Shown here in pieces: positions 2,137 to 64,000 of a stretch of DNA of 64,000 nt. The position numbers and the translations under genes are program-made. This stretch comes from Rhynchopus sp. YZ270_cl-10 (lineage: Eukaryota), in NCBI GenBank assembly GCA_964035575.1, contig OZ037834.1, positions 1,178,001 to 1,242,000 of the forward strand, in the 5' to 3' direction. Position 1 is the stretch's first letter. Every line of letters starts with the position of its first letter. Under the pieces are notes generated by a model. It ran no database searches and had not been told where the DNA came from. It saw only the letters and a list, made by a program, of their open reading frames with translations.

Positions 2137-2167
2137 AGATGAACCTAAGCCTCTCGTGCTTAGTCAC
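2137..2167 (-). repeat. Hairpin element family A copy
   Basis: agatgaacctaagcctctcgtgcttagtcac; about 20 co-oriented copies in the window. Confidence 0.9.
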
Positions 2168-2254
2168 TTTGATCGAGATAAAAATACAAGGTTATAAATT
2201 CACTTTCAATTCAGGAGAACAGAAAGCACGGTTAAAATAAAACTGTGGTTGTTG

Positions 2255-2304
2255 ATGCAGACCTCGACTGACCCACGCACGATGCCAGCCATCCGGATGA
2301 AAGC
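2255..2304 (-). repeat. Interspersed element family E copy
   Basis: gatgcag..cgactgacccacgcacgatgccagccatccggatgaaagc; also at 33152, 61352 and 63722. Confidence 0.85.
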
Positions 2305-3072
2305 CAACAGTAGATGTAGAAAAAATCCCCATCATTTCCGTTCTGTTTTCGAGGGGTACAGGGAAAGGGAAATGGGGAATGGGGACACCACAAAACAAAA
2401 ACTTTTTTGCAAGAGTGAAAACAAAAAACGCAAAACGGGATACTAACGGGGGGTCAAAAACCTTTTTGGTCTTGACACGATACATAACAGAAAAAAAAAG
2501 AGTAAAAATGTGAAATTGTGCAAATGTCTCACTGGACACTGGACGCAGTGGGCAAAAAAAAAATACTGACAGGAGGAGTGGGGGGCCAGGGAACACATGA
2601 CAATGGACAATATTCTGAACAGGAATAACCGATTATGCACATATCCTATTTACAAACACTTCTTAAGGCCAGGCAAAAAAAAAGAAGAAAAACACGCACA
2701 CACAATGAAAATGGATAATTATGGCTACCTGAAAAGGTGGGGGGGTACTGTCCTGTTTCCCTCAAAACCCCACATCACTCCCAAAAAAAAAACTTATAAA
2801 AGAAACCCAAACTGAAACGCTTCTTAACACCACCACCACCACCACCACCACCACCACTTCATCCTCTGTGTGGAGCACTAACGGCTAACGGAGACGTTTC
2901 TCCTTTTACCTCTCTACGGTACCTTCTTAGAAATCTTTGAATCTCTAAAGGCAACTAAATAAGATGAACCTAAGCCTCGGTACTTCACTATGGGGTAAAG
3001 ACTGAATCACGATCAGTGCACCCAGGGGTTGGTTTTTGACCCAAATTTCCCAAACCAGAGAGAAATGCCCCC

Positions 3073-5082
3073 TTATACGAGGAAGGACTGTGCTCTTAGG
3101 TGTTTAAGGACGCTTGCGGTCGCAGCGGAGAAGCTTTCGACGTCCACGTGGACACCATGCTTGCGAACCAACTCCAGGACCAGAACGTTCACCTCTCTGA
3201 ACCTTGAGCGTGGGAGACGTGGAAACAGATGGTGTACAATATGAAGGTTCAACCCCCCATGTATCCAGTCAAGCCACACCGGGCAGGACACATCCTTGAT
3301 CACAGCGGTCTGTCTGCGGCACCACCCGCCCTTCACTTCGTCCTTCTCTGCGAAGGGCTTGTCATAATGAGAAAGACACAACTGCAGTGCCAGGAGACCC
3401 TGCCCGCAGAAGGCCGCCACATACCACACCCCCACCACCTGCAGCCATGTCCCCGCTGCGGTGAAGAATGCTGTTAGAAAGGCGTAGTGGAGTGCTACCC
3501 CAGCCCACTCTGCCTGCCCTTCCTGCATGGTGTAGGACGCAATGCAGATCCCAAATCGGCCCAAAAAGAACATCACAGGGAGGAACGTAATGTGCTGCAC
3601 CCCTACCACCCAGCGGCATACGCTGTGCGGGAGAAACTCTGACAGCATCGTGTCCTGGTTGAACAACCCGGCCTCATGCTGCTGTGGGTCCGAGCAGCCG
3701 ACCCCAGGAATGACAGTGTTTGTGAAGAAGTGGTGTTCGAAGTGCTCGACGCGCCACCAATCGCCTGAAAGACCTACACAGATGTTACCCCAGAACCATC
3801 CGTGGGCTTGGTCGACCTTACGCTTTCCGAACACACTGTTATGGTAGAAATCATGCGCAAAAAACGCAGCCTGCTGCCAAAACACCCCAAGCAGAACACC
3901 AGGCACGACGACCCCCATCAACATCCCACCACCTCCTCCTCCATCACCCCCATTTGTCGCCATGAAGAAGTACGAGGCTGCAATCAAGGCGACGTTGAAC
4001 GCTATCTTCAGCATATACCATTGGGTTGGCGGTGCGTAAAAGCCTTCCTCCTCAAGCTTCGCTGAGAGCACACGGAAGTCCTCTTCCAAAGGGTCGTCGA
4101 GCTTGAAGGTGTACGACCCGCATGGGGTGAAGCGTTTCAGCACTTCAGGCTTGTGGAATGCTTCGAATTGGAGGGTCGCGTCTAGGCCGTAGAACTCTTT
4201 GAGAACTGAGCCGCCTGGGTGGTGTGGGAGGAAGGCCTCTACGTCGTACCAGTTGCCAGCTACACCGATGCGGGCAGAGCCGGGGGCGGTGGAGCGGATG
4301 ATTCTGTTCTTGGGGTGTTTGGCGTGGCGGTGTGCGTCGTGGGGTGTGGGGGTGGGTGTAGTCGTCTTTGCCTCGGTGGTTTCCAAGGAGACATGTGCGA
4401 GACAATAACTAAACACACAAAGATGCACCACACTCACCACATCCACATTCACCACCCCACACCCCGCAACCAACACCCCCACCACAGCGCACTGCGTCAA
4501 CGTCACCCTCCGTATCCTCCCCTCAATCGCCTCCGCTACAGCGGCCACTACATCGCGGTTGCATACCCTCTCTGAGGTCCACATGAACAAACAAGAAAAG
4601 CAGCACCAAAACAACGGTGACAGCATCCCCTTCACGAGAAGCAGGATCAGCGTCACCACAAGCAGGGGGTGCAGGAGCAGGCACGTTGTCACATTGGTGC
4701 GCCCTGGGGTCGACCCGATCTTGAGGGAGTTCTTGAAGAGGGTCGCTGAGGCGCATGAGATGATACAGATGCCGGTCCCTAGGAGGGTTGCGGGGATGAC
4801 TGTGTATGCCTTGCCTACACTGTACGTTACGGCCATCCAGTAGATCGCCTCGTAAAAGGAACGTGCAGGGACGGTACGCCAGTTGAAGACACAGCGCTGC
4901 AGACGGTCCACAATGATGTCGCACCCCGGCACCCTCGCCGCACTCCACAACGTGCTGCCGACGACAATGGACGATATGGTTGCAGCCATGTACACTACTG
5001 CAATGCGGGCGACGCTGGTGGTCTCCTCAGCTGCTGCTGTGTAAGCGTCGAGGAGGGTGCCATTGGTAGGCCACGACTCCAT
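3073..5082 (-). CDS. Cytochrome b5-fused front-end-type fatty acid/sphingolipid desaturase with an extra N-terminal membrane region
   Basis: 669-aa ORF; HPGG haem motif; histidine boxes HDFYH, HFEHH and HIVHHLFP. Confidence 0.9.
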   Translation of the reverse strand: MESWPTNGTLLDAYTAAAEETTSVARIAVVYMAATISSIVVGSTLWSAARVPGCDIIVDRLQRCVFNWRTVPARSFYEAIYWMAVTYSVGKAYTVIPATLLGTGICIISCASATLFKNSLKIGSTPGRTNVTTCLLLHPLLVVTLILLLVKGMLSPLFWCCFSCLFMWTSERVCNRDVVAAVAEAIEGRIRRVTLTQCAVVGVLVAGCGVVNVDVVSVVHLCVFSYCLAHVSLETTEAKTTTPTPTPHDAHRHAKHPKNRIIRSTAPGSARIGVAGNWYDVEAFLPHHPGGSVLKEFYGLDATLQFEAFHKPEVLKRFTPCGSYTFKLDDPLEEDFRVLSAKLEEEGFYAPPTQWYMLKIAFNVALIAASYFFMATNGGDGGGGGGMLMGVVVPGVLLGVFWQQAAFFAHDFYHNSVFGKRKVDQAHGWFWGNICVGLSGDWWRVEHFEHHFFTNTVIPGVGCSDPQQHEAGLFNQDTMLSEFLPHSVCRWVVGVQHITFLPVMFFLGRFGICIASYTMQEGQAEWAGVALHYAFLTAFFTAAGTWLQVVGVWYVAAFCGQGLLALQLCLSHYDKPFAEKDEVKGGWCRRQTAVIKDVSCPVWLDWIHGGLNLHIVHHLFPRLPRSRFREVNVLVLELVRKHGVHVDVESFSAATASVLKHLRAQSFLV

Positions 5083-5818
5083 TGCGATGATCTAAAAAAC
5101 AATATATCTGTGAAGTGGGAAATAGTGGGGTGGAGCAAAAAAAAGTGAAGGTTGAGGACAACCAACCGGGATCTAATACAGAAAGCTGTAGATGCGTTTC
5201 TGAGCCATAAGGAGCAGGCAGGATCCTTAAAAGAGAGATGCAGGAGGGGGGAGGAGGGGAGGAGGGGAGGAGGGAGGGGAGAAAAAATGATAGTTGTGAG
5301 GTGGGGGGGGGCTATGGTTAAATGTTGTTCGCTTTTTTGAAACTTAAAAAAAAGGGGGGGATTGGGAAGGGGGGGGGGGGGGGGGGGAAATAACACTCTA
5401 GGTTTTGAACAAATGCATTTGTTTTCTCTGAATTTTTTTTTGATTTTTTTGTCGTAACTGGACAAATTAAATCACACAACAAAGCGCCAAAAAGGCCATC
5501 CCACATAAGAAGCACATCTAAGATCTGCCCTTCTTTGTGGATAAAGAAGAAGAAAAAATTCGACGATCTGGGCAATATTCCTGTAAGGAAACCACCTACA
5601 CACACAACACACCTTTTTGGGGCCATATTCTACACAAGAATTACCCCCATTAGTTATCACACACACACACCTTTTCCAAAAAAAAATCACAACAAAAAAT
5701 CATTCTCAATCATCTTTTTTTTCTACAGTTATGACTCTAACTCCCCACTAATCTATACCCAAACCACCCCATCCCTTACGGATCCCCTCCCCTCCCCTCC
5801 CTTCTCCTCTCCCCCATT

Positions 5819-8217: not shown

Positions 8218-9014
8218 TGATTTCAAAACTCTAAGGAGGGGTTTTTACCCCTCCTTGTCTTACTGTATGTGTACTGTAGGTGGGATAGGTAGATAGGGGA
8301 GGACTCGGAGGGGGAGTGCTTTTTTGTTTCATATATATTGGATCCTTTTCTCATTTCACGTTTGTTTTGTGAGGTTTTTTTTTTCGCTAGGAGAGCGGAA
8401 GAGGTGTGCACAAGAGGACATTGCAAGACGAATACGACTCATCTTTCATCAGAAGAATATCAAAAAAAAAAGGGAGGTAGTCGATACGAAAGGGTGAAAG
8501 ATGAGAGGAAAAAAACTAAACCCCAACATGTTTTGCAACCTCAAGGTGGATAAAAACCTTAAGTGGGGGTTTTATCTCCGTGATCCCTGTATTGCGCTTT
8601 AACACAAAAAAAGGGGCAGTATTTGCCCTATATTGCCAGACACAGCTCGTCAGTACAGTGACTGATGTGTGCTGTGTGGCAAATCTCCAACAATGCATTA
8701 TTTTCGTTGTGCCTTTAATCAACAAAGCGACGTGACAGTTCCTTTTTGGATGCGAATATGGGTTCTCCCCCCGCTGTTTTCGCAGTACTGTGGGTGGTGA
8801 GGATGGGTCCGTTGTTTTTTATTTTTTTGTTATTTTATTTTTTTGAAATAAGATCTTGCTGGGTGTTGGAGTTGTCGCTTCGTGTTGACACATCGTGCAA
8901 TTTCCATTTTTCTGCAATCCACGTAATAGCCTAGGGCATGTTGTTGTTTTGTTTTGTTCTTTTTTTTGAAAACTTGGTACACACATTCACGCACATCTTT
9001 GGAAAGAGTTTTGG

Positions 9015-9043
9015 GATGAACCTAAGACGCTCGCTTAGTCACC
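9015..9043 (-). repeat. Hairpin element family A copy
   Basis: gatgaacctaagacgctcgcttagtcacc. Confidence 0.85.
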
Positions 9044-9446
9044 TTTTAAACGAAAAGAGAGGGAGAGAAAAATACCTCCAGAATTGGAAGGGGTTTTGTT
9101 GGCAAATGAAACTTGTAAGATTGTCAGACGTCTCACATGCTTCCGCGCGCACACATGCACACATGCACACATCTTTACAAATGCAGACAACTAACTGGCC
9201 AGCAATGGTGCAGGGAAAAAAATGAAGGAGTGAACCCTCAACAATACCACTGCGGGTGGGTGGCTAGTTCTGTAGTTCTGTTCTGTATCAAGAAAATCGA
9301 CACCTCTTTTGCATCAGATACACTAAGGGAAAATGCCTTTTTAGTACAAACCCTCGATGTATGCAGGCACAAAAGGGAGCTTTTTTTTTGCACACACAAA
9401 AAAAAAAAAAAAAAAAAAACAATCAAAACAAAGAGACGCAAAAAAG

Positions 9447-9509
9447 GTGAAGTCGATAGTGCAAACGCAGACGCAGGCACTGACACTCCGCGGGTTATCG
9501 AACCCCCGG
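9447..9509 (-). repeat. Interspersed element family D copy
   Basis: gtgaagtcgatagtgcaaacgcagacgcaggcactgacactccgcgggttatcgaacccc; matches 58583 and 63791. Confidence 0.9.
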
Positions 9510-11505: not shown

Positions 11506-11543
11506 ACTACACACAGCCCCCCTCTCCTGTTGTGAAAATAAAA

Positions 11544-11653
11544 GTTGGCTTGAAATACAAAGCCCTCTCGTGAAGTGTACCTTTGGTACAAATGAGCTGG
11601 CTGTACCGGGGGGTGGATGCAGTCCTACATTCCATTTCGTGGTTTATATCTGA
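11544..11653 (-). repeat. Interspersed element family C copy, near full length
   Basis: ttgaaatacaaagccctctcgtgaagtgtacctttggtac...gcagtcctacattccatttcgtggtttatatctga; matches 29626 and 51910. Confidence 0.9.
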
Positions 11654-23201: not shown

Positions 23202-23398
23202 GATGTGTGGATATGCTGTTGGGTAGGGGTGTTTGACATGCAGACAACCTCCTTCATGCATGCGTACACTGCAGTGCTGGCATGAGCAATAGGGAAGTGA
23301 AGCACTGTGAAAGGTGTGCTGAGGGTGGTGGTTCTACAACCTCCACATACAAGCTCCACTGTCTTGGGGAATTTCATCAGAGACAAATCACAGTGGTA

Positions 23399-23427
23399 AG
23401 ATGAACGTGCCTCTCGTGCACACATCT
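23399..23427 (-). repeat. Hairpin element subfamily A-prime copy
   Basis: agatgaacgtgcctctcgtgcacacatct; also near 23806, 26445, 61644 and 62581. Confidence 0.8.
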
Positions 23428-24260
23428 ACGCACAAAGAGAAGTGGCAGTTGAGTTGATAGTGCAGACTTCTCTACAAGGGCTTCAGACACAGCTGCAAAG
23501 ATGAGGTTCTTTGAGCAATCCACGAAATGTGGAGCACGAAACTAAAACTGAGGGGCGGCTGAATAAAAAGAGAAGTTGAAAGTGCAAACAACCGTTCATC
23601 TGCGGACACAGTCACTGGTTCTCCGCTGGTTATCGAACCCCAGAGAGCACTTCATTGACATACGCACGGATACCACGAGGGAGGTTGTCAGCAGGAACAT
23701 AAAAATGAAAGGATGCAAAGATGTGAGGGGGGGCGGGAATTCTGTCTTTAGCTCCTTCCGTATGGGAAAAGAAGGGGGAAGAGAACAAAAAGAGAAAATT
23801 TAAAAGATGAATGTGCCTCTCGTGCACACACATTAAAGAATCTAGTCGTTTGGTATCAGCCCAAGGCAAAAAACACACACACAAGACCTGCTTTTTCCAG
23901 CTACCCAGCCATGGCAGTCCACCTACCTGTACCTCATACAATAGGTGCCAGACACCACCAAAACCAGATAGTTCCACAGAGACCCCAACAGGAAACTACC
24001 AGCAGTCTACCACTGTCTTGAGCAGTGCAACCGTGCTACGTAGAACAAACAAGAGAACGCCTGGGCAGTGACAGCGCATAGGCTGATACCGTTTGCATCA
24101 GCAGTGAGCCAAATGTTATCTCGACAATCGTCCAAGGTGGAAACCTGGTGCAACTCATACACGTCGGCAGGAAAGATTTTCGTGATCACCTCGCACGGAC
24201 CTCTCCAAGTTGACAATATATGGTTTCAATATTTCCAGTTCGGCCATATCAGACTAAATA

Positions 24261-26238: not shown

Positions 26239-27259
26239 GATGTGTGGATATGCTGTTGGGTAGGAGGGGTGTGTGACATGCAGACAACCTCCTTCATGCA
26301 TGCGTACACTGCAGTGCTGGCATGAGCAATAGGGAAGTGTGAAGCACTGTGAAAGGTGTGCTGAGGGTGGTGGGGGGTTCACCAACCTCCACATACAAGC
26401 TTCACTGTCTTAGGGAATTTCATCTGAGACAAATCATAGTTGTGAGGTGAACGTGCCTCTCGTGCACACATCTACGCACAAAGAGAAGTGGCAGTTGAGT
26501 TGATAGTGCAGACTTCTCTACAAGGGCTTCAGACACAGCTGCAAAGATGAGGTTCTTTGAGCAATCCACGAAATGTGGAGCACGAAACCAAAACTGAGGG
26601 GGACTGAATAAAAAGAGAAGTTGAAAGTGCAAACACCGTTCATCTGCGGACGCAGGCATGGTTCTCCGCGGGTTATCGAACCCCAGAGAGCACTTCATTG
26701 ACATACACACGGATACCACGAGGGAGGTTGTCAGCAGGAACATAAAAATGAAAGGATGCAAAGATGTGAGGGGGGGCGGGAATTCTGTCTTTAGCTCCTT
26801 CCGTATGGGAAAAGAAAAGAGGGAAGAGAACAAAGAATCTAAGCATTGGGTATCAGCCCAAGGCAAAAAACACACACAGGGAGACCACTTACTTTTTTTT
26901 GGTACCATCCTCCCAAACCTTCACCATTCCCCCTTTCCCTGGAATCCAAAATCCTAATGTTTCTAGTTACCCAGCCATGCAGTCCACCTAACCTGCTTAG
27001 GTCCTTGCATCCAGACGTGAAAGAAAAAACAACCTCTCTGCTTGGTCACCCTATAATATCTGGCAAAATGAATGTATCCCACACATCTACCACAATAGGT
27101 GCCACACCACCAAAACCAGATAGTTCCACCAGGACGTCCACGCAGATGATATTAAAACCATGTGAAGTCTCAGTCGAGGCTTTTAGGTTTGACCCATCTG
27201 GGGGGTTTTATGCTGCTTCTTTTGTACTGTGCAAGGACCTAACCCCGTGTCCCCATTAT

Positions 27260-29745: not shown

Positions 29746-30497
29746 ATATGCTACTCCCGCTTCCACTCATCAGATGAACAGGGATCATTGCAAGAAAACG
29801 CAGTGGATGGAAAGTGGGCAATAAAACTGGTAGTATCAATACAAGAAAGAGTGGAAAAGGGTCATGGGTGTGGGTGAAGGTACCTTCGTTGGGTTTGCAG
29901 TTCGGAGATGTGCGCTTTTCTCTTGCGTCAATACCCGCATCAGGTATAGGTACGGAGACGTGGTGTTAAACACTCTTCATTATTTCAATTTTTTTTTGAA
30001 AAATTCCGATTATTTAGCCCCACGTCCCGTTACCGTAATACGGTAGGTTTTGCTCGATGAGTTGGACAATGAGATGAGAAATGCCCTTCCGCTTTTCAAA
30101 AAAGACACCTTTGACAGATGTAGCCTCTCATGGACACATCAAATAACAAACGTGGAGTTCACATGTGATACACACCTCTGAAATGCTGTCGCGAATAAAA
30201 GGTAAAATGAATTCAATAACGTACACACACTTCAAGGCAGATGCTGGCACGTGGTAAAATACAAAAAACGGGCGTGGTGTGGTGGTCAACTCATATTTCG
30301 AACCGCAGAAAAGAAGAAAAAAGGCACTGAAAAATAAAACGTCAAAAGATGAATTTGTCTCGGTGCACATTTGTTACCATCTGAAAAAGGAAAAGCCTTG
30401 GTAAGATCCTAAGCCTACGCTTAGGTCACCTAAAATAAAAACACACGGTACAGGAGAACTCGAATCATCCTTTTCTTTTTTCAAAAAACTTGGTAGT

Positions 30498-30534: not shown

Positions 30535-31364
30535 TTTTTTTGTCATAAAACCCCCCCAGAAGGTGGCCAGCAGGCCAAATCCCCCCCCCTCCATTCCCGC
30601 TCCCATCAGCAGATAAGCGATTAACCACACGATACAGAAAACAACACTGTGCGTTGTGCGAAAAAAGTTGGATTTGGGTCTCAAAATAGAAACTTAACAC
30701 TCATCACACGATAAAACCCATGGGAGAGGTTGTGGTGAAACGCACACACCTCGACCTGTTTGGTGAGGCGTGGCTCTGCAGCGCGGTTCGTCCCTAGAAC
30801 CGCGAGTGTGTTCAAAATGCTTTGTTTCTATTTCCTCCTTCATTTCATGAGGTGACACAAAAAAATTGAAAAAAAACTTGCAAAAGCTACATTGTGCCTC
30901 TGGGTGCTCGCACACTCTAATAAAAGAGAAGTAGAAAGTACAAACGCTTCATCATACAATCGGCAGACGCGGGCACTGATCTTTGCTAATCTAACATAGC
31001 TAGTAAGAGAAACCTAAGCCCTGCCTAGACACCTTAGTCACCTTTGAACCAAACACACGCCACAACGTTTTTTCGGGGCTAGAATTTAAAAAAAAAATTT
31101 AAAAAAAAGTCGATGCAGAACTACCCTGCAACCCTCACAACAAAAACTACCCCCACTACCCCTCACACACATCCCCCCCCTGCCATAACTCCTCCCACAT
31201 TCATTTCTTCTTTCACACATTGAAATCCCCGAATCTTTCAATACAAATTCCACAATTTTTCTCCTTTGGAAATACGAATGAAATAGGGGAAAAACTCCAC
31301 ATTTTTTTCAAAGGTTGGCTTGAAATACTAAGCCCCCCACCCCGACTTTCCCCCCCTCCCCTTC

Positions 31365-34733: not shown

Positions 34734-35059
34734 ATCCACCACTAAGGGGATGGTGATGGTGTACAGAGAGAGATGGGGGAAATCCTTTTTTTGGAAAAAG
34801 ACCCAACCAAACCAAAAAAAAGGGGGGTTTTTTTAGATGAACCTAAGCTGGGCTTATAGTCAGCCTTACAAAATTAGGTTCCCCCCTTCTTCCCATCCCG
34901 TATCCCCTTTCCACCCACCCCAGAACCCCACAACCCTTTCCTTTTGCATGAGAGACTGTAACGCCCCTCGAGACTTCCTTTTTTCCCCCATTTTTCCCCC
35001 CTCCAATCCTACTATCGCATCGTATTTAGGGAAAATGGTTCAAAAAAAAAATCTCATTT

Positions 35060-35659: not shown

Positions 35660-36346
35660 AATGTAGCTTATTTGATTTTTGTTTGCTTCCCTGTAAGGTG
35701 TGGTGAATATGTAAAGAGAAAAAACAGCTAATAAAAGTCAAACCCCACAGCTACTAAAAGGAGAAAGTGATATATCAAAAAGAATTGGTTGTTATTTTTT
35801 GTTTTTCCTGTTTTTTGCTGTGTATTTTTGTGTATTTTTTTTTTTTTTTTGGCTTTTTTTTCCTCTTGTTTTTATTAATTGAAAAAAGTGGATTGTTTTT
35901 TTGAGCATCCGTGTGTGCAAAAGAAAAAAAAAAAAAAATCACCAAAATTCTGAATTTGCTTGTTTTATTTGTGTGCCGATAGAAATACCTCCCTTCGGTT
36001 TCTTATCATTATCACACAGATCTGTTCTTTCTAAAAAAGAATGAAAAAAAAAGAGAGAAAAGGGAAAAGCACAAAAAAGATAATTTGATTTTAACCCTTA
36101 ACGCTCACCGCCATATTTTGGGCGCACCTTGAGGGTGGGAAAAAAAGAGAGAATTTCGAAGTGGAAACGCCTTACCGTTCATCGGCGGACGCAGGGCACT
36201 GTCTCTCAGGGAAAAAAAATGTCAAAAACTATGTAATCATAAAAAGGGGCGGGGGGTGTAGTGAGCAAGTAAGTGACAGAGGGGGGGAAGGGAGAGAGGA
36301 ACTGGTAGGGAATAGAATAAAAAAAAAAAAAAATGAAAAGTTCATA

Positions 36347-36379
36347 AGATGACCCTAAGCCTCTCGTGCTTAGTCATCC
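36347..36379 (-). repeat. Hairpin element family A copy
   Basis: agatgaccctaagcctctcgtgcttagtcatc. Confidence 0.9.
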
Positions 36380-37193
36380 TGAAAGAAAAAAGAAGGGGGG
36401 AGACTGTGGCCCAGGATTTTGGGGGGGTCAAAAAGTAGTGCCCTGTGGGCTGCAGTCTGGTTCGGGAAATTGAGGTGGGGGGGAAAGAGCATCGAAAAAG
36501 AGAGACTCGGAGAGCCTCCGTTTTACGAATACTACATACTGTACTAGGTCCACGTGTCTATACTTCGCCCCTTTCTCCTGACCTTTTTTCTTTCGATCAC
36601 AAGAAGGGGGCTGGTGACATGGTGGCATTTTATGAAATCTTCAATCATTTCAAATCTTTTCATTGGCAAAGTGGAAGTCTCACGCAATGAACCACTTCAC
36701 TTCAACCAAAATGCCGATGAAACCAGCAAAACACCATACAGGGGATGTGGAGGAGAGGGGGGAAGAAATAATAAAAAAAATAGAAAACTTTGTTTAGATG
36801 ACCCTAAGCCTCTTTGTGTTTTCGTCACCTAAAAAAAAGACAGTTCTCAACCTTTTTTCGCAGACATTTTCAAGGCCGTGCCGATTGTTGACTCACTCAT
36901 TAAGTGGATGGTGGGGAAGGGAAGGGAGAGAAGGGGGACGGAAAAAAATGAAAGCGGGGTGGCTAGAAAGCCACCGGTGTAAAAGGGGTCCTAAATACAT
37001 CGAATGTAGGGTAGCAGGCTACGGCGCAAGTGGACGTGGACGTGACAAAGAAGAAGAGAAGTTAAGCCGCAAGACGCTGCGGAGACTCGCTTCTGAGGCC
37101 AACATGGGGAGGGGGGTGATGAGGCATGTTGGTGTGCGAGTGCTGGAAGGTTCCACAACTGGAGCTGTTCCGCGGGAATAGTCTTGCTCACGC

Positions 37194-47392: not shown

Positions 47393-48066
47393 CCCAGGTG
47401 GGGGATGGGGTGGGGGGGTGTGTGATTGTAAAGTCTCTAAGATTCTGTGATCACCTTAGGTTAGAATCGTTAGGGGATGTGCATTGGTATATGTGGTATT
47501 TGCATGGGGTTGGTTGTTGGGGGATAAATCGTCATTTTTCCCTCAGCCTGATTGGGGTGTCCTGGAAATTCAGGTGAAATAGTGTGAAAATGGTCGTAGG
47601 TGAGTTGCCCTTGGGATGCCCCATTGATGGTTCGTAATTTTTTTTGTTTGGTAGCGTGGTGTGCAGGAATGAGCATTAAAAAGGTCTTTTTTTGTTTTGC
47701 TTCTTTTTCCCCCTTTGCATCAACAAATCACCGAGAGAGAGGTGGGTTTTTCGGTACTCAAACAAAACAAAAAAAAAAAAATGCTGCCCGAAGGGGGGGC
47801 TAGGATGATGACGGTGTCAATCATATTTCCTTTTTTTTTGAAGAAAAAATCATGGCGTCGGTGGACCTGACGACATGCGAACTTGCGTCCAACAGCGGAC
47901 CGTCATTTGTATGCTTGCCCCCTTGTTGTTGCTGTTTATGGGTATTTTTTTTTTCTAGGCTAGACGAAAAGGCAGGAAACCCTCATGGCTTTGTGTTGCA
48001 GAACTGTCAGTAACAGCTCCGAAGACATACCCATTTAAACAGGTTTCAAAAAAAGGAGAAAAATAA

Positions 48067-48102
48067 GGACGAACCTAAGCCTCACAAAAGTGCTTAGTCG
48101 TC
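48067..48102 (-). repeat. Hairpin element family A copy with compensatory change
   Basis: gacgaacctaagc...gcttagtcgtc (GACGA/TCGTC instead of GATGA/TCAYC). Confidence 0.85.
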
Positions 48103-48326
48103 ATACCCAAAGGAGGATACAATCCCCGCGATTATTCAAAAACCTTTTATTTTTGAAAGGTAAACGCACCTTGAGATTGTAACGTATCATTTTTCCGCAG
48201 ACGTATTTTGCTAAAACAAAACCCCATTTTCAAACAAATCCAAAAAATTCATGTCCCCGCAACGTTTTTCATAAAACCTTTTAAATCACCATTTCCCCCA
48301 ACTCCCCTTACCCCCTTTTCCCCCCC

Positions 48327-53228: not shown

Positions 53229-54043
53229 GTGGGGGGTTGTGGGGGGGTCGACGGCGGGTATGTATTACTGTGTGTTTTCTGAACTGTATGTGTTCATTAC
53301 TCACATTTGTCATTTTTTTTGGAACTCAGCTGTGCTGACATCGTCAAAAAAAACGCAATAAAACGCCATCATTGACAGTTGTATGACACTTTGAAGGGGA
53401 AAGCGGGTGCTTTTTGGTACACAATAAAAAAATATGGTGGTTGTGACTGCAAAACGCCTCTGGAAGTCTGGAAGCGGACACCAATTCTCTGAGGGTTAAC
53501 AAAAGAACACAGATACGTAAGAAGAACCAATACCTTCCGATTCTGAGCTTAGCCACCTCCAACAAAAAAAAAAAGTGTTGTGGTGTGTTCCGGGCCTACC
53601 CCCCGAAGTGTTGTTGACAAAGACACGCATGTCACACGATCTAAATAGAGAGAGAGAAAGAGAGAGAGGAGAGTCGGTAGTTTAAAATAGTACCTCTGAT
53701 AGGTAAATAAAAGGGGTCATTTTTTCCCGTTGATTGCTCAATTACCCTGGAGGGGTGATTTGGCGACCGTATCGGAAGAAACTATTTCTCCTTTTAGTCA
53801 CGCTTGCAGGTACAATAAAAAAGTTAACCATGGTAAGTACGGGCTGTTTGGAGCCTGTGACCACCAGAGAACAAAAAAAAAACACACACACACATACGCA
53901 TGAACGTGATAGTGCAAAACGCCTTTGTGACGCAGGCACTGACACTCTGTGGAACACTAAAGAATCAGGCCTCTGGCTTATTTTTCCAGAAAAAGTTGCA
54001 CCATTAACCAAAGTTGGCCTGCCTACCCCGGCATGGGTTGGAA

Positions 54044-54075
54044 AGATGAACCTAAGCCTCGTATGCTTAGTCACC
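54044..54075 (-). repeat. Hairpin element family A copy
   Basis: agatgaacctaagcctcgtatgcttagtcacc. Confidence 0.9.
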
Positions 54076-54657
54076 TTTGGATCACGATCGTCGTCAAAAG
54101 AAAGAAAAAAACAGAAAAGCGTTGAAGGAAAACGAGGGGGGAGGAAAGTGTCTCGGGTACAGAAAATTTAGAACTAGGTCTTGGCGCCTTCTCTAAAGAT
54201 TTATTTTTTATTTTGACACAAAATCTAAATATCAAAAAAGGGGGGGCTTCGAATAGGGCTCTACGTGCACACATAACACACACATCTTCAGATTTTTTTG
54301 AAAAGCGGGTTTGCGGGTTTTGCAGGCATTTTTCTTGCCTTTTTTTGGTCAAAGTGCTGAAAGAAATCGCTCTAACCTTTATTTTTGTTCGACAATCCGC
54401 TCTAAGCACCGCACCTTAGTGAGGTGCGCTAAAGTCGGTACTCAATTTTTGAAAATACAAATAAATATTGATATTCCCAAACAGGCATTTAAACGCACCT
54501 TCACAAAGAATTATTGAAACACCGTTACGCAAAAAACCCCGCTTTTTTTATCCCACAAAAAAACAAAAAGAAGGTATTGAAACCCTCCTTCCCCCCACAT
54601 AGCAGTTCTGGAGGGGGGTGGCGATCTCCTCTGATGCAAAGCCTAACCCCGCTCTTC

Positions 54658-56249: not shown

Positions 56250-58059
56250 GGAAAGGGGGGGAGAGGGGGAAGAGGAGGGAGGGGGTTTCTTCTGAGGTGG
56301 AGAGGTTATGGTAGAGTGTGAAGGAGGGTGGAGGTATAAAAAAAAAATATCGCACAAAGTGGATGAGATGTGTCTTGAGAAAGACCACTCGGGGAACTAC
56401 CACGCAAAACCTGATACTGCAGGAAATGTTCCTCCTCATGGACCTAGTACGGGGAATAGTTTTGCCTCCACTGTGGGTATGCACAGAGGACCAGGTAGCT
56501 GACGATTTCACGCGAGGCATGCACAGAACAAACTACAAGACATAATGCCGAATTACCGCCGAAAGGAGAGAGAGAGAGAGAGCAAAAAAAGAAGGCCTTC
56601 ATTTTCTTCTTCGTGTTGTTCGTTTCTGGATAAAAAAAAAAGGGGGGGTAGTGGGATGGATGGGAAGAGATGAGGGATTTTTTTTTTGTGCTGAAGACAT
56701 ATCAAAAAAGAGTTATTTATTTTTGAACTCATTTTTGTAGCAAAAAAAGAAAGAACAAAGAACACCACACAACAACAACAACCTCTCTGTGTGGATAATC
56801 CTTTTATCTTTATTTTTTCACCTGGTTTTTGGCTGAACGCCCGACTTCGTATGCACTAAAAAAAATAAAAAGGTTAACTTAAAAAGGGGGGTGGGATCTA
56901 AGATGGAAAATGAGACAAAACCAGAACGAGAGTCGGGGGGGATTGGGGAAGGGTAGAAGGGCGGAAATGGCAAAAAATAGAATTCAAAATAGAACTCAAT
57001 GGAACAGATGTTATACTAGGTGTAACGATCTGTGCTTAGTCACCTTGAAAAAAAAACCCCCCCCTTCAAACGATTTCATATACATTATTTTCTAAATGAA
57101 AAGAATGTATATGAAATCGTTGTACCCTTCAAAAAAAAGTTTATAAGATGACCCTAAGCCTCTCATGCTAATAGCTAGTCAAAAAAAAAAGATACCATGA
57201 ATGTGCCTCGCACATTTCAAAGCAAAAAAAAAAGAACATTTTGTAACATGACTATGCTTCACAGTGCATACACATTCCAAAAAGTGGGGTTCACAACACA
57301 CACTTTTTTTGCCATAAAAAGGAAAGCACCTTAAAAAAAGACAGACAAAACAAAACCAAACTCCATATGAAATGTTGAGACAAGAAAATGAGGAAATTCC
57401 TTGAAAATTATGAGGAAATTTTTTGTGGGGACATAATCTACCTGATTTTTTGACCCAATATGTTTTCCGGTATTTTGCCGTTTTTTTAACACCTGAAAAC
57501 ACGGGTAAACATAGGTCAAAATCACGTTTGACAATATGTTGAATCAATTTTCAACTTTATTTTTTCCCCTCTCATTAACTACTGCCACAGCGGACCAGTC
57601 AGAGAACTATTTTTACTTGATTGAAAACCATTAGTCACAACAACTAGCAACTAGTACGAAAACTAGCATATTGTTACAGGTATACCACACAAAAAAACAG
57701 TAGTCATTTCGATTAGTAGCTCCAAATCCCCCCTGACTAAGTCCTCCTGACTAATCCGCCGGGTGTCTTCTCACGGGGGGGTGGTGGTGGTGGGAGGGGG
57801 TATTTGAATAAGGACATTTTGTTTTTAATGATGATGAACGTGATAAAGGGTGATTGGTGGTCCCATATGTCCTTCTCCTTTCCCCAACTCTTACTCAAAA
57901 AAAATCCAAATCAAGTAAAACCACAGATACAACATTATTCGACCTTTTTTTAAACTCCATTTTTTTTCACTCTTCATTCTTGAAAAAAATTTGTCTGAGT
58001 AGCAAAAAAGGCGCCCTTAGAGGGGGTGCTTTGGTACATAGACGATGTTTCTTTTTTTG

Positions 58060-58118
58060 ATAAATTGTAGTGTAGTTGCTTCGGTTGTGTTGCCACATAG
58101 TTGTGCAAATCTCCACTG
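58060..58118 (-). repeat. Family B copy
   Basis: Matches 838-899. Confidence 0.85.
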
Positions 58119-58582
58119 CAATTTATAAAAAGAAGGTGAAGGAAGAGAGAAAAAAAGATGCAGTAAAATGAGCTAAAACGGGTTGTAAGGTTTCGCTTGT
58201 GTTGGCAGTCGCCCTTGGATTGAAAGAAAAAGAGAGAAGCAGAGATGGGATACGGAGGGAGATTTTGGGTACCACGAAAAAAAAATTCACCTATGGCCAG
58301 ATAAAATAAAATGGGAGAGAATAGAGGTCTGCAAACGACTAGGAATTTATTAAAAAAGCAACAGAAAAGAAGAAAAAAAATTGAAAGATGAACCTAAGCC
58401 TCACCTTGAGTACAAATATTACCAGAAGGAATGGTGCAGTGTACGTTGGGAGGAGATATGAAAAAAGAGCTTTCTCATTTTTTTTGTGCAATATAGCACA
58501 CCACAAAGGGGAAATGTATAAAAAACATAACAATGTATTTTCTGAAGTGGACTGCACTTCGCAACAAAAAAAATAACAACAA

Positions 58583-58652
58583 AGTGAAGTTGATAGTGCA
58601 AAACACCTCTTGGACGCAGGGCACTGACACTCCGTGGGATATCGAATCACGG
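58583..58652 (-). repeat. Family D copy
   Basis: Matches 9447-9509 and 63791-63861. Confidence 0.9.
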
Positions 58653-59147
58653 AGTGCTGCATAAACAAAACAAGTATTTTCAACAGATGCAATCAATAGA
58701 TTGATAGCATAGGAGGGATCAATACAAAAACAATAAAGAGAACAGGTTGGCCACTTGGTTACTGAACAGGAGGGGGGTTTGAAAATGTTTTTTGTATGTT
58801 TTGAAAGTGCTTTGTGCTCTGTTTAATTGTCGTTACTGAACAGGAGGGGGGGGGAAAGTAATCCTATAAGGAATGGAAGTGTACTCTCGTGCACATATAC
58901 CTTACCAGAAAAAAAGCGGGGGGGTGGTTCCTTTTCTGTTTGTTCTACCCTTTTCTTCCGAAAACAAAGTGGTTCGGGTCAAAAAAAGCGAAAATCAGGG
59001 AACCTCTTAAAAAAATGGATGATAATACTTCGACGCACTACGAATCCATATGAATTCATGGGGGGGAAAAGGTGACATACCACAACACACAAATACATCA
59101 TTTCATTTTCCATCGTCATCTCTTTGCTCCATTTTCTTCCCTTTTTT

Positions 59148-59210
59148 GATAAATTGTTGGAGTAGTGTAGTTGCCTCGGTTGTGTTGCCACAGTTGTGCA
59201 ATCTCCACTG
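59148..59210 (-). repeat. Family B copy
   Basis: Matches 838-899. Confidence 0.9.
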
Positions 59211-59883
59211 TCCTTTTTTTTTTTTTTTTTTTTGTGCCGTGCTCACAAAGAATAGAAGACCATTTTATTTTGCCTTTTTTTTCTACCCACTCAGTACAGC
59301 AAACCCTCACCTCCCCTCATCCTCATATCAACGCAAAGAGAAGAGAGTGAGAGAGAGGGAGGCAAGGGAACATGGATAACCTGCTGTAGTGGGCACTTCT
59401 TATACTATTAGCTTTTGCGGCATTCAAAAACACAAAAAGCAAATTCATATACTTTCAAATAAAATTTGAAAGCATTAGGGAAGTCAAACAAAAAGAAAAA
59501 AGAGAGAAAAAAAAGCGCATTTAGATATACCTAAGCCTCTCGTTGCTTTAGTCATCTAAACAAAAGAATGGTTGAAAAAGACAATAGGAAAAAAAATGAT
59601 GTAGAACACAATACTGATAAAAACATGGTCCAAACAATGGCCAAACCTGTCACTTTTAAAAAAGAATCCTAAAAATTGGTGGTATTGAAATACAAAGCCC
59701 TCTCACAACCTTTTGGTTGTGCTCAGTACGTAAAAAAGGGTTGGTTTTTTTTGTAAGGAATCTGAGGAAACCCTCAATATTCAGTCACCAAAATAAGACG
59801 GGGGAGAAAAATAAGGAGGGTGGTAAAGAAGGCAAGCAGACCTCGAGGAGATGAAGGTGTTTTTTTGTTGAAAACTTGGTTGC

Positions 59884-59920
59884 ATTAGTGTAGCCACCCT
59901 AGAGTGTGCTACACTATTTT
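59884..59920 (-). repeat. Family F hairpin copy
   Basis: tagtgtagccaccctagagtgtgctacacta. Confidence 0.75.
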
Positions 59921-60045
59921 ATTTGGTCATAATGTAACCCTTCTTTGCAAGAAGGGGGGAGGATAAGGAGGATGGGGTGGGTGGGTGGGGAGAAGCCTGT
60001 TTCGAGAATCGTTTTTTAATTTATTTTTTTTTTTTGAAAAAAAAA

Positions 60046-60102
60046 AATGTTGGAGTAGTGTAGTTGCCTCAGTTGTGTTGCCACAGTTGTGCAATCTCCA
60101 CT
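60046..60102 (-). repeat. Family B copy
   Basis: Matches 838-899. Confidence 0.9.
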
Positions 60103-60935
60103 TTTTTTTATATTTCATTTCGACAAAATCACCAGTCCGAAGACGGGTCCTGCAGAGTGAGTCGCCCAAAGGCTAATTATTCTTTTGGGAAAATTACGTT
60201 CCCATTGAGTCAAAATAGACTCATTTGATTTAACATAAATGTTACGAAGAACTAGAACAAAAAAAAATTAATTGGATAGACAAAATCGAACACTTAAAAC
60301 TGAAAGTCTGTTGGTCAAAAAAAAAAAAAAAATAAAATACATCACAACGGAGGGGAAAAGAGCAGACAGTATTGTCTAAATAAACTCTTATTTAAACAAC
60401 GAAAAAAAATGATGAAGATATACCGGGAATTAATACAGGGAATATTTTTTTTTGGGAGTCCCCGCAGAAATAAAAGGGAACTGGACTTCTAGTTCGGGAA
60501 TTAAAAAAAAAAAACGATAATAATAACCAAAGAGAAACAAACCTTGAGGGGAGAAGAAAAAACAAATGATGAATTCCTGGAAAACGCTCATTTTTTTCTT
60601 CTTTCTTGCTTCCACTCTACGAAAAACATAGTATCAAAATCCGTAACAGAACAGAGCCAAATAGAAATAAATTGATGGAACTAATAAAATTATCGGTGCA
60701 AAAAAAAATAAGTAAATAAATAACAACGCTGGTTAGACGATCATAAGCCTCCTGCTTGATCATATTCTATCATTAACAAAAAGGCGTCAAATATCGGTCA
60801 GTAATGAGCGCCTCTACAATAAAGCAAACAAAACTAAAGGAGCAGTGGGGGGAGAGGGAGAGAAAGAAAGAGGAAGACATGGTCACCACAACACTATTTC
60901 ACTACATCGTAGTGTGCTTGAATGGTGCTCTGGGA

Positions 60936-61085
60936 CAGTGATCTAAAATACGTACTGCTACGTATTACCGTAACTGTAAAAATGTTGGTCCGGCAATTTT
61001 TCGCCCCAGCTGTCCCAACATTTTTACAGTTACGGTAATACGAATTCGTACTAATACGTATTTAGCCACGTATTTTAGATCACTG
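60936..61085. mobile_element. Young 150-bp MITE with perfect 18-bp TIR and 9-bp target duplication
   Basis: gctctggga|cagtgatctaaaatacgt ... acgtattttagatcactg|gctctggga; long internal inverted repeat. Confidence 0.9.
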
Positions 61086-61464
61086 GCTCTGGGAGGGGTC
61101 GATTTTGACAGGTCGCTGACACAGGGACTTTATAGACACCCTGATATTGACAGGTCGTGACAGGTCGTGACACGTCGTTGACCGACTTCCGAAAGCACCA
61201 TTGAAGGAACCATTCATTCCCTAGAGAGAAAAATCCCTCCCCATGGGAGAGGGGAAACCATCATCCACAAAATAGTCATTTCCCCCTTCAATTCAGGAAC
61301 GCATTTAAAAAAAAAAAAAATCTATAAAAAATGTGGTAGTTATCGATTCAGGTACTGACCCGACGATGCCGTCCAGATGAAAAGCAGTACCCTGCGGGCC
61401 AACAACTAAAGGTGTAAAAGAAGAAAAAAAAACCCCCTCCCCTCTCCCATCAAAGTTTTGTCAT

Positions 61465-61499
61465 GATGAACATAAGCCTCACAATAGCTTATATCACCC
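61465..61499 (-). repeat. Family A copy with compensatory change
   Basis: gatgaacataagc...gcttatatcacc (ATAAGC/GCTTAT instead of CTAAGC/GCTTAG). Confidence 0.8.
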
Positions 61500-62661
61500 T
61501 TTGTAAAGTAGAGTTGAAAAATACAAAGTCCTCACATGAACAGTGTACCTTGCGTACATGACCCTTTTAAAAGAGATGGACATGCATGTACCGAATGTAT
61601 TTTTTGAATAAAAAACAAAAACAAAAACAAAACATTTTTGCAAAGATGAACGCACCTTTCGTGCATAAACATCTGAACCTGTTGGCAAATAAACCAACAA
61701 TACGTTTTAACGAGACAAATAAGGACCGTAGGTGGGGGACGGAGAAGGGGTGGGTGAGCTAAGGACAAGGCACGTATTCTACTAGAAACAGGCTTCAGTG
61801 GCAATGTAGGGGAAGGGTGTGTGTGTGGAGAAGGGGAATCAACAAAATAGTTTATCAAAAAAAAAAGAATAAAAAAAAACACAAAAAAAAAGACATGGTG
61901 TGCAAAAGGATGGAACCCCACATCAACAACAATGCAACAAAAAAGGGGGCTAAAAACATTGCGTTTAAAAAAATGAAAAAGAAAAAGGTTGCCATGGGCT
62001 GGACGCTTTTTTTAAAAAAAGCAGGAAAAAGTCAAAAGTCTAAAAAGGACCAAAGATGAATATAGTGTGCCGCTCATTAGTTTCACACATCCATCCTTTG
62101 AAAAAGAAAAAAAGCGAAGTAACAGTTGTATACCAAAAGGAGGGACCAAAAAAATCCAGACTTTTTTTTAAAATTCATTCCCAACAGATTTCTGCTAGCC
62201 TTCAATTCAGTGCGAGGCTACTAAAATAACTGATGGGGATGCATTTTCTGCATATTTTTTTTTACCCTCTTTTTTTCGACAAAGCCTCTTGGTATAACCC
62301 GGATGTGTTTGGACTAAGGTGGTATCAAACAACACCTTAAACCTAACAAAAAAATTGCTTTTTTAATATAGTTCCTTTCTCATACAAAGAACAAGATGAC
62401 AGCAACAACAAAACAAAGAAAAGTATTTCAACAATACGCATTCAATAAATTGAGAGCATAGGTATAGGGACAAAATATATTCCCAAAAAGAAAAAAAAAA
62501 TGAAAATACCCCACAGTGACGGGAAGAAGGGGTCGGGTTTAAAAGGGGGGGCGTTGTAATATATGAATGACCGTAGAGGTAGGTGAAGGTACCTCTCGTG
62601 CACACAACAATAAAAAAAAATGCAAAGATAATGCGGAGCAAAATAAAGAAAACGTTTTTTT

Positions 62662-62727
62662 GATAAATTGTTGGAGTAGTGTAGTTGCCTCGGGTTGTGT
62701 TGCCACAGTTTGTGCAAATCTCCACTG
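62662..62727 (-). repeat. Family B copy
   Basis: Matches 838-899. Confidence 0.9.
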
Positions 62728-63721
62728 TTTTTTTTTTGTGAGAAGATGATCCTAAGCCATAGTGGGCTGTGATAATTGCCTATCATAATACACAATACAG
62801 CTTGCATTGTGATGTGCATTATGTATTATGATAGGATCCACTACTCATCCCTCTGGTGCTAGTCACCTGGATACAATGTTAGCAATGTGATAGTGTATGC
62901 TAATCCATAGAGTACCAAAAGTAGTCAAAAAAAATCGTAGATTTTCTGCAAAAAAAAAAAAAGAACTAAATAACTCTTGTAGAGGGGAAAGGGGGGGAAA
63001 GGCGAAGCTGAAAAAGAACAACAACAAAGAAATAGAAAAAAAACCCCAGCGCCCTTCTCTCAGATGGGAGGCTTTTCGTGCATGATTTGGCCAAGGTGTG
63101 GCAACACCACCCCCTTCCCCTGGACAAATAATGAATATTTGAAATATTTGTTTGAAGTAGAGGGTTTGTATACTTTTTTTTCAGCTCCGACAGTGTTTTG
63201 TTATTTTGTTACAACAGAAAAACAGAAACCCCCACAACGGTACTCACCGGAAATAAAAACGCTCTTCAAAAAAAAAAATAGAAAAAAAAAATTATGACTC
63301 TAGCCTTTCTGTGAACAGTCTTCAAAAAAAAAAAACTAAGTCACATTACAAATGCCTTGAAATGTTGTCGACAAAAAAAATGTGTAGGTTTTCCCTCTAA
63401 AAAGAAATCAGTGTTTTTGAGCTGCGCAATAAGTGAAGCTGAACACTGGCTGAACAAAAAAGAAAGTTCGCAAGATGGATCTGCCTCTCGTACGACACCC
63501 ATCCTTTTAAAAACAACCAGCAAAGAGAGAGTAGGAACACATTTTAACGAAGAAAGACAACAAAACAAAACAAGAAAAAGCCATTTAGCCGTAAAAATAA
63601 GCACGATTTCCCCTTCATTCTAACACACCCCCATATCGATGGCTGAAGCCTGGGGGTATAAAAAGAAAAGAAGGGGCAAATCTTCTGGGGTGAATACCCA
63701 AAAGCAAAAACTGTAGTTATA

Positions 63722-63777
63722 GATGCAGGCACCCCTCCGACTGACCTACGCACGATGCCAGCCATCCGGATGAAAGC
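63722..63777 (-). repeat. Family E copy
   Basis: Matches 2255-2304. Confidence 0.85.
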
Positions 63778-63790
63778 AACAAAAAAAAAA

Positions 63791-63861
63791 AGTGAAGTTG
63801 ATAGTGCAAAACGCCCTCTGGGGCGCAGGGCACTGACACTCCGTGGGTTATCGAACCCCGA
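63791..63861 (-). repeat. Family D copy
   Basis: Matches 9447-9509 and 58583-58652. Confidence 0.9.
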
Positions 63862-64000
63862 AAAAAAAAAGGGGTTGGTATTAGATGATCACTCAATCCC
63901 TTTCTTGGTCACCTTATTTTCAATATTTTTTTTTTTGAATGAGCGCTTTTTTCTATGTATGATTTGCTTCTCGCATTTTTACCCCCCCCAAAATTGTCAA

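Follow-up and report, generated by a model that had tools for sequence, protein, structure and literature searches.

A stretch of 64,000 nucleotides (nt) of contig OZ037834.1 from Rhynchopus sp. YZ270_cl-10 (assembly GCA_964035575.1, positions 1,178,001 to 1,242,000; hereafter the window) contains several families of short repeats, one of which, family A, is a small bulged hairpin that an initial annotation had reported in about 20 copies. Here we show that family A is a genome-wide, high-copy and sharply bounded repeat, which that annotation had overlooked. It is very probably a mobile or copy-dispersed repeat of some kind. The more specific reading that we favour, and to which we assign a probability of roughly 45%, is that family A is a minimal non-autonomous element copied through RNA, the bulged hairpin being the recognition signal of the mobilising enzyme.

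The genome-wide distribution was derived from contigs of several runs; copies are named here by the positions given in the initial annotation (Table 1). On a 141-nt stretch around copy 2137, contigs placed at 80% likeness numbered 3,378 in run X4, 1,630 in X6, 2,461 in X1 and 2,804 in X2, and 349 of the 3,378 X4 contigs were at least 99% identical to that stretch. The ends are sharp, with depth rising near position 2120 and falling near 2170; in X1, the summed contig depth, which does not equal copy number, is 95 over the unique flank, reaches 1.85 million within the element and drops again within ~50 nt. Between 44.5 and 64 kb, summed depth in bins with elements was up to three orders of magnitude above that of coding bins in the four runs compared there. 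The same depth pattern was seen in X3, which comes from a separate study, and X5 covers the elements of this region but not its genes. Among the matches listed, at least 352 X1 contigs on the 3' side and at least 265 on the 5' side have differing flanks, and family A therefore occupies at least several hundred loci; we infer that the genome contains thousands. On either side, the majority flank of the genome-wide copies is a homopolymer, which consists of T when read on the sense strand. Consistent with this, T-runs of at least 4 nt lie beside copies of subfamily A1 in the window on the 5' side in 11 of 17 cases and on the 3' side in 10 of 17, compared with 25% of random non-coding sites. Head-to-tail copies were present at four contig joints.

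The second feature of the repeat is its polarity. The window, whose minus strand carries the plausible long open reading frames (ORFs) and every scanned ORF with a Pfam match, is interpreted as a section of a single unidirectional gene cluster in a divergent diplonemid. Seven profiles, representing six families (A to F, with A split into A1 and A2), gave 55 non-overlapping matches at an expectation value (E) <=0.05, all on the minus strand (A1, 17; A2, 6; B, 10; C, 7; D, 4; E, 2; F, 9), some of which are tandem paralogues, so that the count is not fully independent; the reversed control of the same profiles gave no match at this threshold. According to the gene models made in this analysis, on which the coding fraction and all distances to stop codons rest, coding sequence makes up 40% of the window and contains none of the 55 elements. 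Introns contain none either, compared with 2.5 expected, which is not significant (P=0.07). T-runs of at least 8 nt show a mild bias towards the same strand (98 on the minus and 64 on the plus strand). The strict polarity is the interesting part of the pattern.

The elements are not tied to a particular place in the transcription unit. The initial annotation had several copies some 100-230 nt downstream of stop codons, a distance that fits three of the 11 copies with an upstream gene (84, 192 and 221 nt); the other eight lie at 319-1,822 nt, and no fixed distance is apparent over the full range of 84-1,822 nt. Proximity to a start codon (100 nt or less) was seen for one A1 copy of the 17, copy 29503, which immediately precedes a pyrimidine run, an AG and that codon. 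The presence of the hairpin in a transcript is supported by contig 29 of run X6, which begins at the AG at 56292 with 19 extra letters and runs without gaps through copy 54044 to 53765, apart from a skipped GT-AG intron (Table 1) that X4 retains. None of the runs is registered as RNA, and X6 is read as such because its contig skips this intron; the contig of the TRM13 gene in the same run likewise begins at an AG, with 17 extra letters, and these extra 5' letters would be leader sequence if X6, judged from its contigs alone, is indeed RNA. Copy 54044 is located ~580 nt past the stop codon and is not spliced out, and it is the one copy for which a position in a 3' untranslated region (UTR) was seen. 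Contigs cannot locate the ends of transcripts, but most of those of X6 run on for at least 160-255 letters beyond the element in both directions, and the element therefore does not mark transcript ends. We also considered that the repeat might be a non-canonical structured intron of diplonemids and rejected this, as copy 54044 is kept gapless in a spliced contig and no skipping joint spans copy 2137. The 7.7 kb between 56300 and 64000 (minus strand), which have no long ORF, hold about 20 of the 55 elements; X6 contig depth is 21-36 over 57140-58604, and the whole of 56300-64000 may be a very long 3' UTR.

Subfamily A1 was delimited with an iterated nhmmer profile seeded with eight window copies, using the reversed window as a control. 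The profile gave 25 matches at E<=10, 18 of them at E<=0.012 and all of these on the minus strand; the control gave two matches (E 7.7 and 8.5). Seventeen of the 20 positions first proposed were recovered at E<=0.0011, including the eight seeds, and the remaining three (57030, 63882 and 741) are a half copy, a weak match and a position missed by the profile. Two stems, a 2-nt 3' bulge and a variable loop had been described correctly, and the unit is longer than the ~32 nt proposed: it spans ~41 nt and consists of a lower stem of 7 base pairs (bp), an upper stem of 6 bp, the 2-nt 3' bulge, a loop that varies in sequence and in length (mostly 7 nt), and a 6-nt tail. The two-stem fold is not general, as both arms are kept in 15 of the 18 copies examined and many copies are without the structure given for them. 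Intact copies do adopt this fold, with RNA z-scores of -1.6 to -4.5 in the five copies tried, and as DNA the hairpin is stable (z -3.6 to -5.0). The sequences are found where the annotation had placed them, and the G-U pair in the lower stem on the minus strand is confirmed. The minus strand gave the more stable fold in 19 of 26 copies, compared with 200 of 400 background sites, a count that is not independent because the copies are related. A covariance model built from 15 copies found those 15 at E<=4e-5 together with nine weaker matches to E 2, two of which are plus-strand mirror images of minus-strand copies.

Known RNA families do not account for the repeat. No Rfam match in the window reached the gathering score, none of the 10 matches at E<=10 overlaps a copy, and transfer RNA (tRNA) scans of the window gave no match. 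The exact pattern of the 3' arm was absent from the viral and from the prokaryote genome contigs searched. The two-arm pattern had one match in the metagenome collection (L001), in bacterial-looking coding DNA without the stems, which was read as chance.

The six copies of subfamily A2 have the same loop and 2-nt 3' bulge as A1 and a different upper stem. Their relationship to A1 is drawn from the shared apex and from a single profile match (the A1 profile on one of the six A2 copies, E 0.01), matches of the A2 profile to A1 being circular as this profile had absorbed A1 copies. One A2 copy, the segment at 23787, which comprises the hairpin and its tail, is present in one of five units of a tandem array of PB1-domain genes and absent at the corresponding sites near 26830, 25410, 22250 and 21230. 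This segment has been gained or lost as a unit.

Selection on the stems was assessed in the 15 two-armed copies (three of 18 were left out for an absent 5' arm), which provided 193 pair cells, 151 of them unchanged. Both sides had changed with pairing kept in five cells, compared with 1.4 expected (P=0.009), two of the five being the same change and one coming from a doubtful stretch of an alignment that hides indels. One side had changed with pairing kept in nine cells (11.6 expected), and 28 pairs were broken (33.5 expected, P=0.07). With the two basal pairs set aside, there were three compensated cells compared with 0.9 expected (P=0.048) and 19 broken ones compared with 22.9. Relative to the reference copy, 36 of 330 stem letters are altered. 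The two compensations singled out in the initial annotation are real: copy 48067 has a lower-stem pair changed from T-A to C-G, and copy 61465 an upper-stem pair changed from C-G to A-T. The G-U pair has become A-U in four of the 15 copies. In a MAFFT alignment, covariation did not exceed that of shuffled alignments (score 0.148, compared with 0.153), and a model-fitted alignment of 24 matches gave a marginal result, the observed pairing being reached by 27 of 500 shuffles and the score by 60 of 500. A copy-specific extension of the basal stem, which looked real by eye, was rejected because the copies' own flanks paired no better than swapped ones (P=0.41).

Selection on each copy is thus weakly supported. 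If a few source copies were the ancestors, the shared stems can be explained without it, and the data fit a history in which the structure was kept long-term in source lineages (A2 and copies 30404 and 60735) while most inserted copies decayed. Of the earlier proposal of a selected protein-binding RNA hairpin, the hairpin itself, its location on the sense strand and its presence in a transcript stand; selection on individual copies is weak, and the link to stop codons fails. A protein probably does read the family A hairpin, most likely with the hairpin as the handle of a copying enzyme rather than as a signal tuned gene by gene.

Bulged hairpins that serve such a purpose are known from long interspersed nuclear elements (LINEs): the 36-nt bulged hairpin in the 3' tail of UnaL2 of the eel is required for retrotransposition (PMC1636434), and ORF2 binds the hairpins of LINE 3' tails (PMC4176376). 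The stringent LINE tails (UnaL2/UnaSINE1, ZfL2) and family A are alike as stem-bulge-stem-loops of 36-41 nt, a likeness of shape and size only. Like short interspersed nuclear elements (SINEs), family A is dispersed, high in copy number, non-coding and discrete in its ends. Unlike in LINE and SINE tails, the hairpin is almost the whole element, a partner LINE is not known, and a head derived from tRNA, 7SL or 5S is absent; neither the tRNA scans nor Rfam gave a match for such a head, for which a 41-nt unit has no room. In the route that we propose, sense copies riding in long 3' UTRs would supply the template RNA, and a LINE-type reverse transcriptase encoded elsewhere would bind the stem-bulge-stem and prime copying at T-runs. 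Pairing would be selected mainly in the source copies, giving rise to subfamilies with compensated stems, and inserted copies would decay. Antisense copies would pair with the thousands of sense copies in a fully transcribed polycistronic genome, trigger RNA interference (RNAi) and be lost; this loss through RNAi is the least supported step, and a single window does not distinguish the direction of genes from that of replication. The related diplonemid Diplonema papillatum has unidirectional gene clusters, spliced-leader trans-splicing, RNAi genes and a repeat content of 52% (PMC10161547). Across the families, loss of the 5' part is nominally more frequent than loss of the 3' part (9 vs 2, two-sided P=0.065).

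It should be noted that several observations weigh against copying through RNA. No reverse transcriptase or transposase family was found in the 129 non-coding reading frames of the window. The T-run follows A1 on the sense strand, where known euglenozoan retroposons have an A-rich tail (PMC2323293). One A1 copy is a 5' half only, and one copy of family F has an internal deletion with both ends kept, which is more typical of DNA elements. The empty A2 site is equally explained by a single deletion in a forerunner common to the four units that lack the segment, and it lies in a T-run with a repeat of at most 3-5 nt, no clean target-site duplication being readable in homopolymer runs. As DNA, both strands of family A fold about equally, and the RNA z-scores are alike on both strands, so that the argument from the strand of the G-U pair is weak. 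Insertion into T-runs in random orientation cannot yield 55 of 55 at the observed strand asymmetry (P<1e-9), and an extra polarity filter is therefore required. In addition, runs X4, X6, X1 and X2 come from a single study, and the data behind the assembly itself may be among them.

The view of the initial annotation, which is compatible with a mobile origin, amounts to a co-opted 3' UTR regulator similar to the SIDER repeats of Leishmania, with host selection keeping each copy and an RNA-binding protein setting the stability or translation of the messenger RNA (mRNA). We consider it rather unlikely. It agrees with the location of all 55 matches on the coding strand and outside coding sequence, with the copy in a spliced contig, with the five compensated pairs where 1.4 were expected, with the change of G-U to A-U in four of 15 copies, and with a stem-bulge-stem shape that is kept in the divergent copies 30404 and 60735 and in A2. 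SIDERs are also sense-enriched in 3' UTRs (PMC2689281), and the long 3' UTRs of D. papillatum (median ~800 nt) have been proposed as protein-binding platforms (PMC10161547). However, host selection on every copy is difficult to reconcile with 28 broken pairs, a number not significantly below the neutral one (P=0.07), with covariation that does not exceed that of shuffles, and with a basal extension for which swapped flanks do as well (P=0.41); there is also no fixed position, the loop is variable, half copies are many, and ~20 elements drawn from all families crowd into 7.7 kb that lack a long ORF. A rolling-circle DNA element of the Helentron/HINE type, in which an HUH transposase would read a single-stranded DNA hairpin and insert it in T-runs, the polarity following from the geometry of replication or transcription, appears unlikely as well. 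T-runs on both sides without a clear target duplication are what such an element would leave, as HINEs use T-rich sites and have a 3' palindrome (PMC4067079); the stable DNA hairpin (z -3.6 to -5.0), the head-to-tail copies, the family F copy with an internal deletion and both ends, and the Helitron ORFs present in D. papillatum (PMC10161547) point in the same direction. Against it, no subterminal inverted repeats of 12-15 bp were seen by eye in the aligned copies besides the hairpin, the unit is far shorter than HINEs, family C is flanked by A-runs (3' side, 7/7) and family B lies between direct repeats, and no Rep/helicase was found in the 129 non-coding frames of the window.

Two further origins have far less in their favour. 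Family A could be a decayed piece of 28S ribosomal RNA (rRNA), the sarcin-ricin loop, spread as an rRNA-derived SINE and possibly acting as a decoy. The 8-mer at its apex, ACGAGAGG, has 11 occurrences in the window, all of them on the minus strand, and is found in the sarcin-ricin loop of four of four rRNA loci (23S of E. coli and three eukaryotic large-subunit (LSU) pieces; L002, L003, L005, L007), and the D. papillatum genome carries ~3,600 pieces of 28S (PMC10161547). We nevertheless regard this as highly improbable: both the family A profile and the covariance model (run without filters and to E 10) fail to match the sarcin-ricin loop at any of the four loci, a set to which the organism's own 28S does not belong; the register of pairing differs; the loop is often changed; and the likeness to LSU rRNA is limited to these 8 nt. 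As a separate observation, three contigs of the viral collection carry eukaryotic LSU rRNA (L003 at 3980-4360, L005 at 1-361, L007 at 2245-2589), by contamination, misassembly or capture. Even less credence is given to multi-copy small RNA genes (single-hairpin H/ACA guides or RNA polymerase III transcripts ending in a U-run) or to a trans-splicing or polyadenylation signal. The order of hairpin, short tail and T-run and the location of copy 29503 described above would suit these, but Rfam yields neither a match at the gathering score nor, among 10 matches up to E 10, one that overlaps a copy; a guide pocket and a conserved ACA/AGA box are lacking; a start codon is as close as 100 nt for one A1 copy out of 17; and most X6 contigs run past the element.

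SIRE of Trypanosoma cruzi is linked to pyrimidine tracts. Like family A, it is a short non-autonomous euglenozoan repeat, and it derives from a larger retroelement; it is ~430 bp long and made of the ends of VIPER, whereas family A is without a known parent (PMC6681497). Parallels are also offered by SIDER1 and SIDER2 of Leishmania, which share with family A a euglenozoan polycistronic genome, dispersed non-coding copies and a sense location in 3' UTRs (PMC2323293, PMC2689281); in family A, the 3' UTR position was seen for copy 54044, and all 23 matches of A1 and A2 are on the coding strand, as for sense-oriented SIDERs. SIDERs number in the order of a thousand copies of ~550 bp, with a 79-bp signature and an A-rich 3' stretch, and are extinct (PMC2323293, PMC2689281). 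By contrast, family A is ~41 nt long, shorter than that signature, flanked by T-runs and represented by many near-identical matches, and it has no antisense copy in the window, where SIDERs have a sizeable antisense fraction in spacers (PMC2323293, PMC2689281). HINE/DINE-1 elements are likewise non-coding and of high copy number, with a 3' hairpin and T-runs at both ends, but they are much longer and have subterminal inverted repeats, and strict strand polarity is not mentioned in the available part of the source (PMC4067079). D. papillatum, of the same lineage, resembles the present case in its repeat-rich genome, in its long 3' UTRs and in its short dispersed motifs, which number in the thousands; as far as the account was available it describes no strand-locked hairpin family, and the words "hairpin" and "stem-loop" do not occur in its main text (PMC10161547). 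A literature search on diplonemid repeats, UTRs, hairpins and rRNA-derived SINEs found no such family, Additional file 1 of PMC10161547 (UTRs, repeats) not being covered; seven supplements of that paper gave no match, and "hairpin" is absent from the main text of PMC12621601, as far as these sources were available.

By eye, the families end alike, in a hairpin that is followed by some letters including AAC and then by a T-run. The first hairpin of family B, a repeat of two hairpins, resembles a tRNA T-arm/B-box by eye, and we take this family to be possibly a tRNA-related SINE remnant; an element of this family with its flanks is present in two of the five PB1 units, where it lies between 7-nt direct repeats. 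Family C, whose bins have the highest contig depth of the region between 44.5 and 64 kb, is flanked by A-runs on the sense strand (3' side, 7/7) and not by T-runs, like a classical retroposed insert. In three copies of family D, the hairpin ends in ACA, three letters and a T-run, which gives it an H/ACA-like end. Family F shows nested 5' truncations with a common 3' end and an apex motif like that of family A. By eye, the long F element has a hammerhead-like core, but no cleavage triplet fits and there is no Rfam match. A single superfamily of A to F is not supported: cross-matches between B and D and between C and E (E 0.013-0.09) are like those of the reversed control, and F matches none. 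A class apart from the polar hairpins is formed by palindromic, strand-symmetric segments with long inverted ends, similar to miniature inverted-repeat transposable elements (60952-61051, 57448-57521, 29949-30034, 28122-28237, 62779-62835, 57069-57121, 53177-53212 and 1020-1270).

Table 1. Repeat copies of the window and the intron skipped by the spliced contig.
Feature	Position	Strand	Evidence
A1, near-majority sequence, both arms	2128..2171	-	profile; 48.1 bits covariance model (training set); fold
A1, 3' arm only	2953..2991	-	profile, pair scoring, covariance model
A1, shortened loop	9005..9046	-	profile, covariance model
A1, degenerate 5' arm, ~52 nt before next start codon	29494..29537	-	pair scoring, gene models
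A1 variant, lower stem re-formed with other 3' partner, 3-nt bulge	30392..30433	-	fold, covariance model
A1, enlarged loop, stems partly broken	30998..31045	-	pair scoring, covariance model
A1, 192 nt past stop of RPB4-like gene	34826..34867	-	gene models, covariance model
A1, both arms, RNA fold -14.1 kcal/mol, z -4.25	36338..36381	-	fold, covariance model
A1, lower stem intact, upper stem broken	36787..36832	-	fold, pair scoring
A1, compensated lower-stem pair, 221 nt past stop of ubiquitin-like (Ubl-like) gene	48058..48105	-	pair scoring, gene models
A1, all 13 pairs, unspliced in spliced X6 contig, 579 nt past inferred stop	54035..54078	-	contigs, pair scoring
A1, 5' half only	57024..57048	-	profile E 0.2
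A1, 5' arm degenerate, 3' arm intact	57137..57182	-	pair scoring, covariance model
A1, 5' arm degenerate, 3' arm intact	58377..58419	-	pair scoring, covariance model
A1, both arms	59514..59559	-	pair scoring, covariance model
A1 variant, stem-bulge-stem in shifted register	60726..60767	-	fold, covariance model
A1, compensated upper-stem pair	61455..61501	-	pair scoring, covariance model
A1, 3' arm only, then directly A-run and family C element	62736..62766	-	sequence, family profiles
A1, degenerate	63874..63916	-	profile E 2.1; covariance model (training set)
Possible very divergent copy, A-like lower stem, 7-nt bulge	741..781	-	fold; no profile match
A2, 48-nt extra segment inside T-run	23787..23834	-	paralogue comparison
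A2, same loop, different upper stem, 2-nt 3' bulge	23388..23433	-	profile, fold
A2, tandem-duplication paralogue of 23388	26434..26479	-	profile, array comparison
A2	61630..61678	-	profile
A2, degenerate	62566..62615	-	profile
A2, stem-2-nt bulge-stem with different stems	63462..63508	-	profile
Family B, two-hairpin repeat, ~74 nt	9440-9506, 16710-16753, 23563-23641, 26608-26684, 30919-30990	-	profile
Family B, further copies	36142-36226, 53428-53508, 53890-53966, 58577-58650, 63785-63859	-	profile
Family C, ~72 nt	829-901, 8822-8911, 50637-50710, 58052-58120, 59141-59212, 60015-60105, 62655-62729	-	profile
Family D, ~70 nt	2238-2306, 33127-33194, 61329-61390, 63706-63779	-	profile
Family E, weakly related to C	30473-30536, 59859-59921	-	profile
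Family F, up to ~175 nt	29619-29793, 11529-11706	-	repeat comparison
Family F, shorter copies	51898, 19513, 9676, 61504, 40001, 18748, 59671	-	repeat comparison
GT-AG intron, 266 nt, skipped by X6 contig 29	54722..54987	-	contig alignment

With regard to the genes of the window, the Pfam-matched products, all encoded on the minus strand, are a desaturase, DnaJ, the PB1 array, an RPB4-like protein, Tudor, TRM13 and ABC, and GT-AG introns can be read off the sequence of several genes. The TRM13 protein has eight relatives at 26-38% identity, the five named ones all being diplonemids; the best are those of Diplonema japonicum, D. ambulator and D. papillatum (34-38% identity). The RPB4-like protein (35060-35659, minus) had no relative at E<=0.001 among 85 candidates, itself excepted, and matches Pfam RNA_pol_Rpb4 at E 0.005. 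About eight short PB1-domain-like genes form the tandem array at 19117-26400 (minus), with diverged spacers; two were scanned, both under the Pfam cut-off. A four-exon gene with Tudor-like domains is present as near-identical duplicates at 37187-39195 and 42344-44352 (minus), the likeness of which stops just past the stop codon. A probable C/D-box small nucleolar RNA with boxes C and D and an snR61/Z1/Z11-like guide is located at 39880-39979 (minus); it scores 26.4 bits, under the gathering score of 45 (E 7.9).

In summary, family A adds to the known short dispersed repeats of euglenozoan 3' UTRs and is unusual in its size and strict polarity. A more far-reaching view, which seems quite unlikely at present, is that of a genome-wide code of several hairpin micro-elements of 40-75 nt, which would be among the shortest eukaryotic mobile units, locked to the sense strand of the polycistronic clusters by RNAi directed at antisense copies and co-opted as interchangeable 3' UTR switches that place thousands of mRNAs in hairpin-defined regulons. 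Diplonemids rank with the most abundant eukaryotes of the sea and probably exert post-transcriptional control via their unusually long 3' UTRs (PMC10161547), and family A provides concrete, high-copy and structured candidate signals in these regions. Should the repeat be purely selfish, it still stands out as a mobile unit of unusually small size whose strand rule calls for an explanation. Should it have been co-opted, euglenozoans would have arrived a second time, independently, at SIDER-like regulation by a dispersed repeat, here with a much smaller element.

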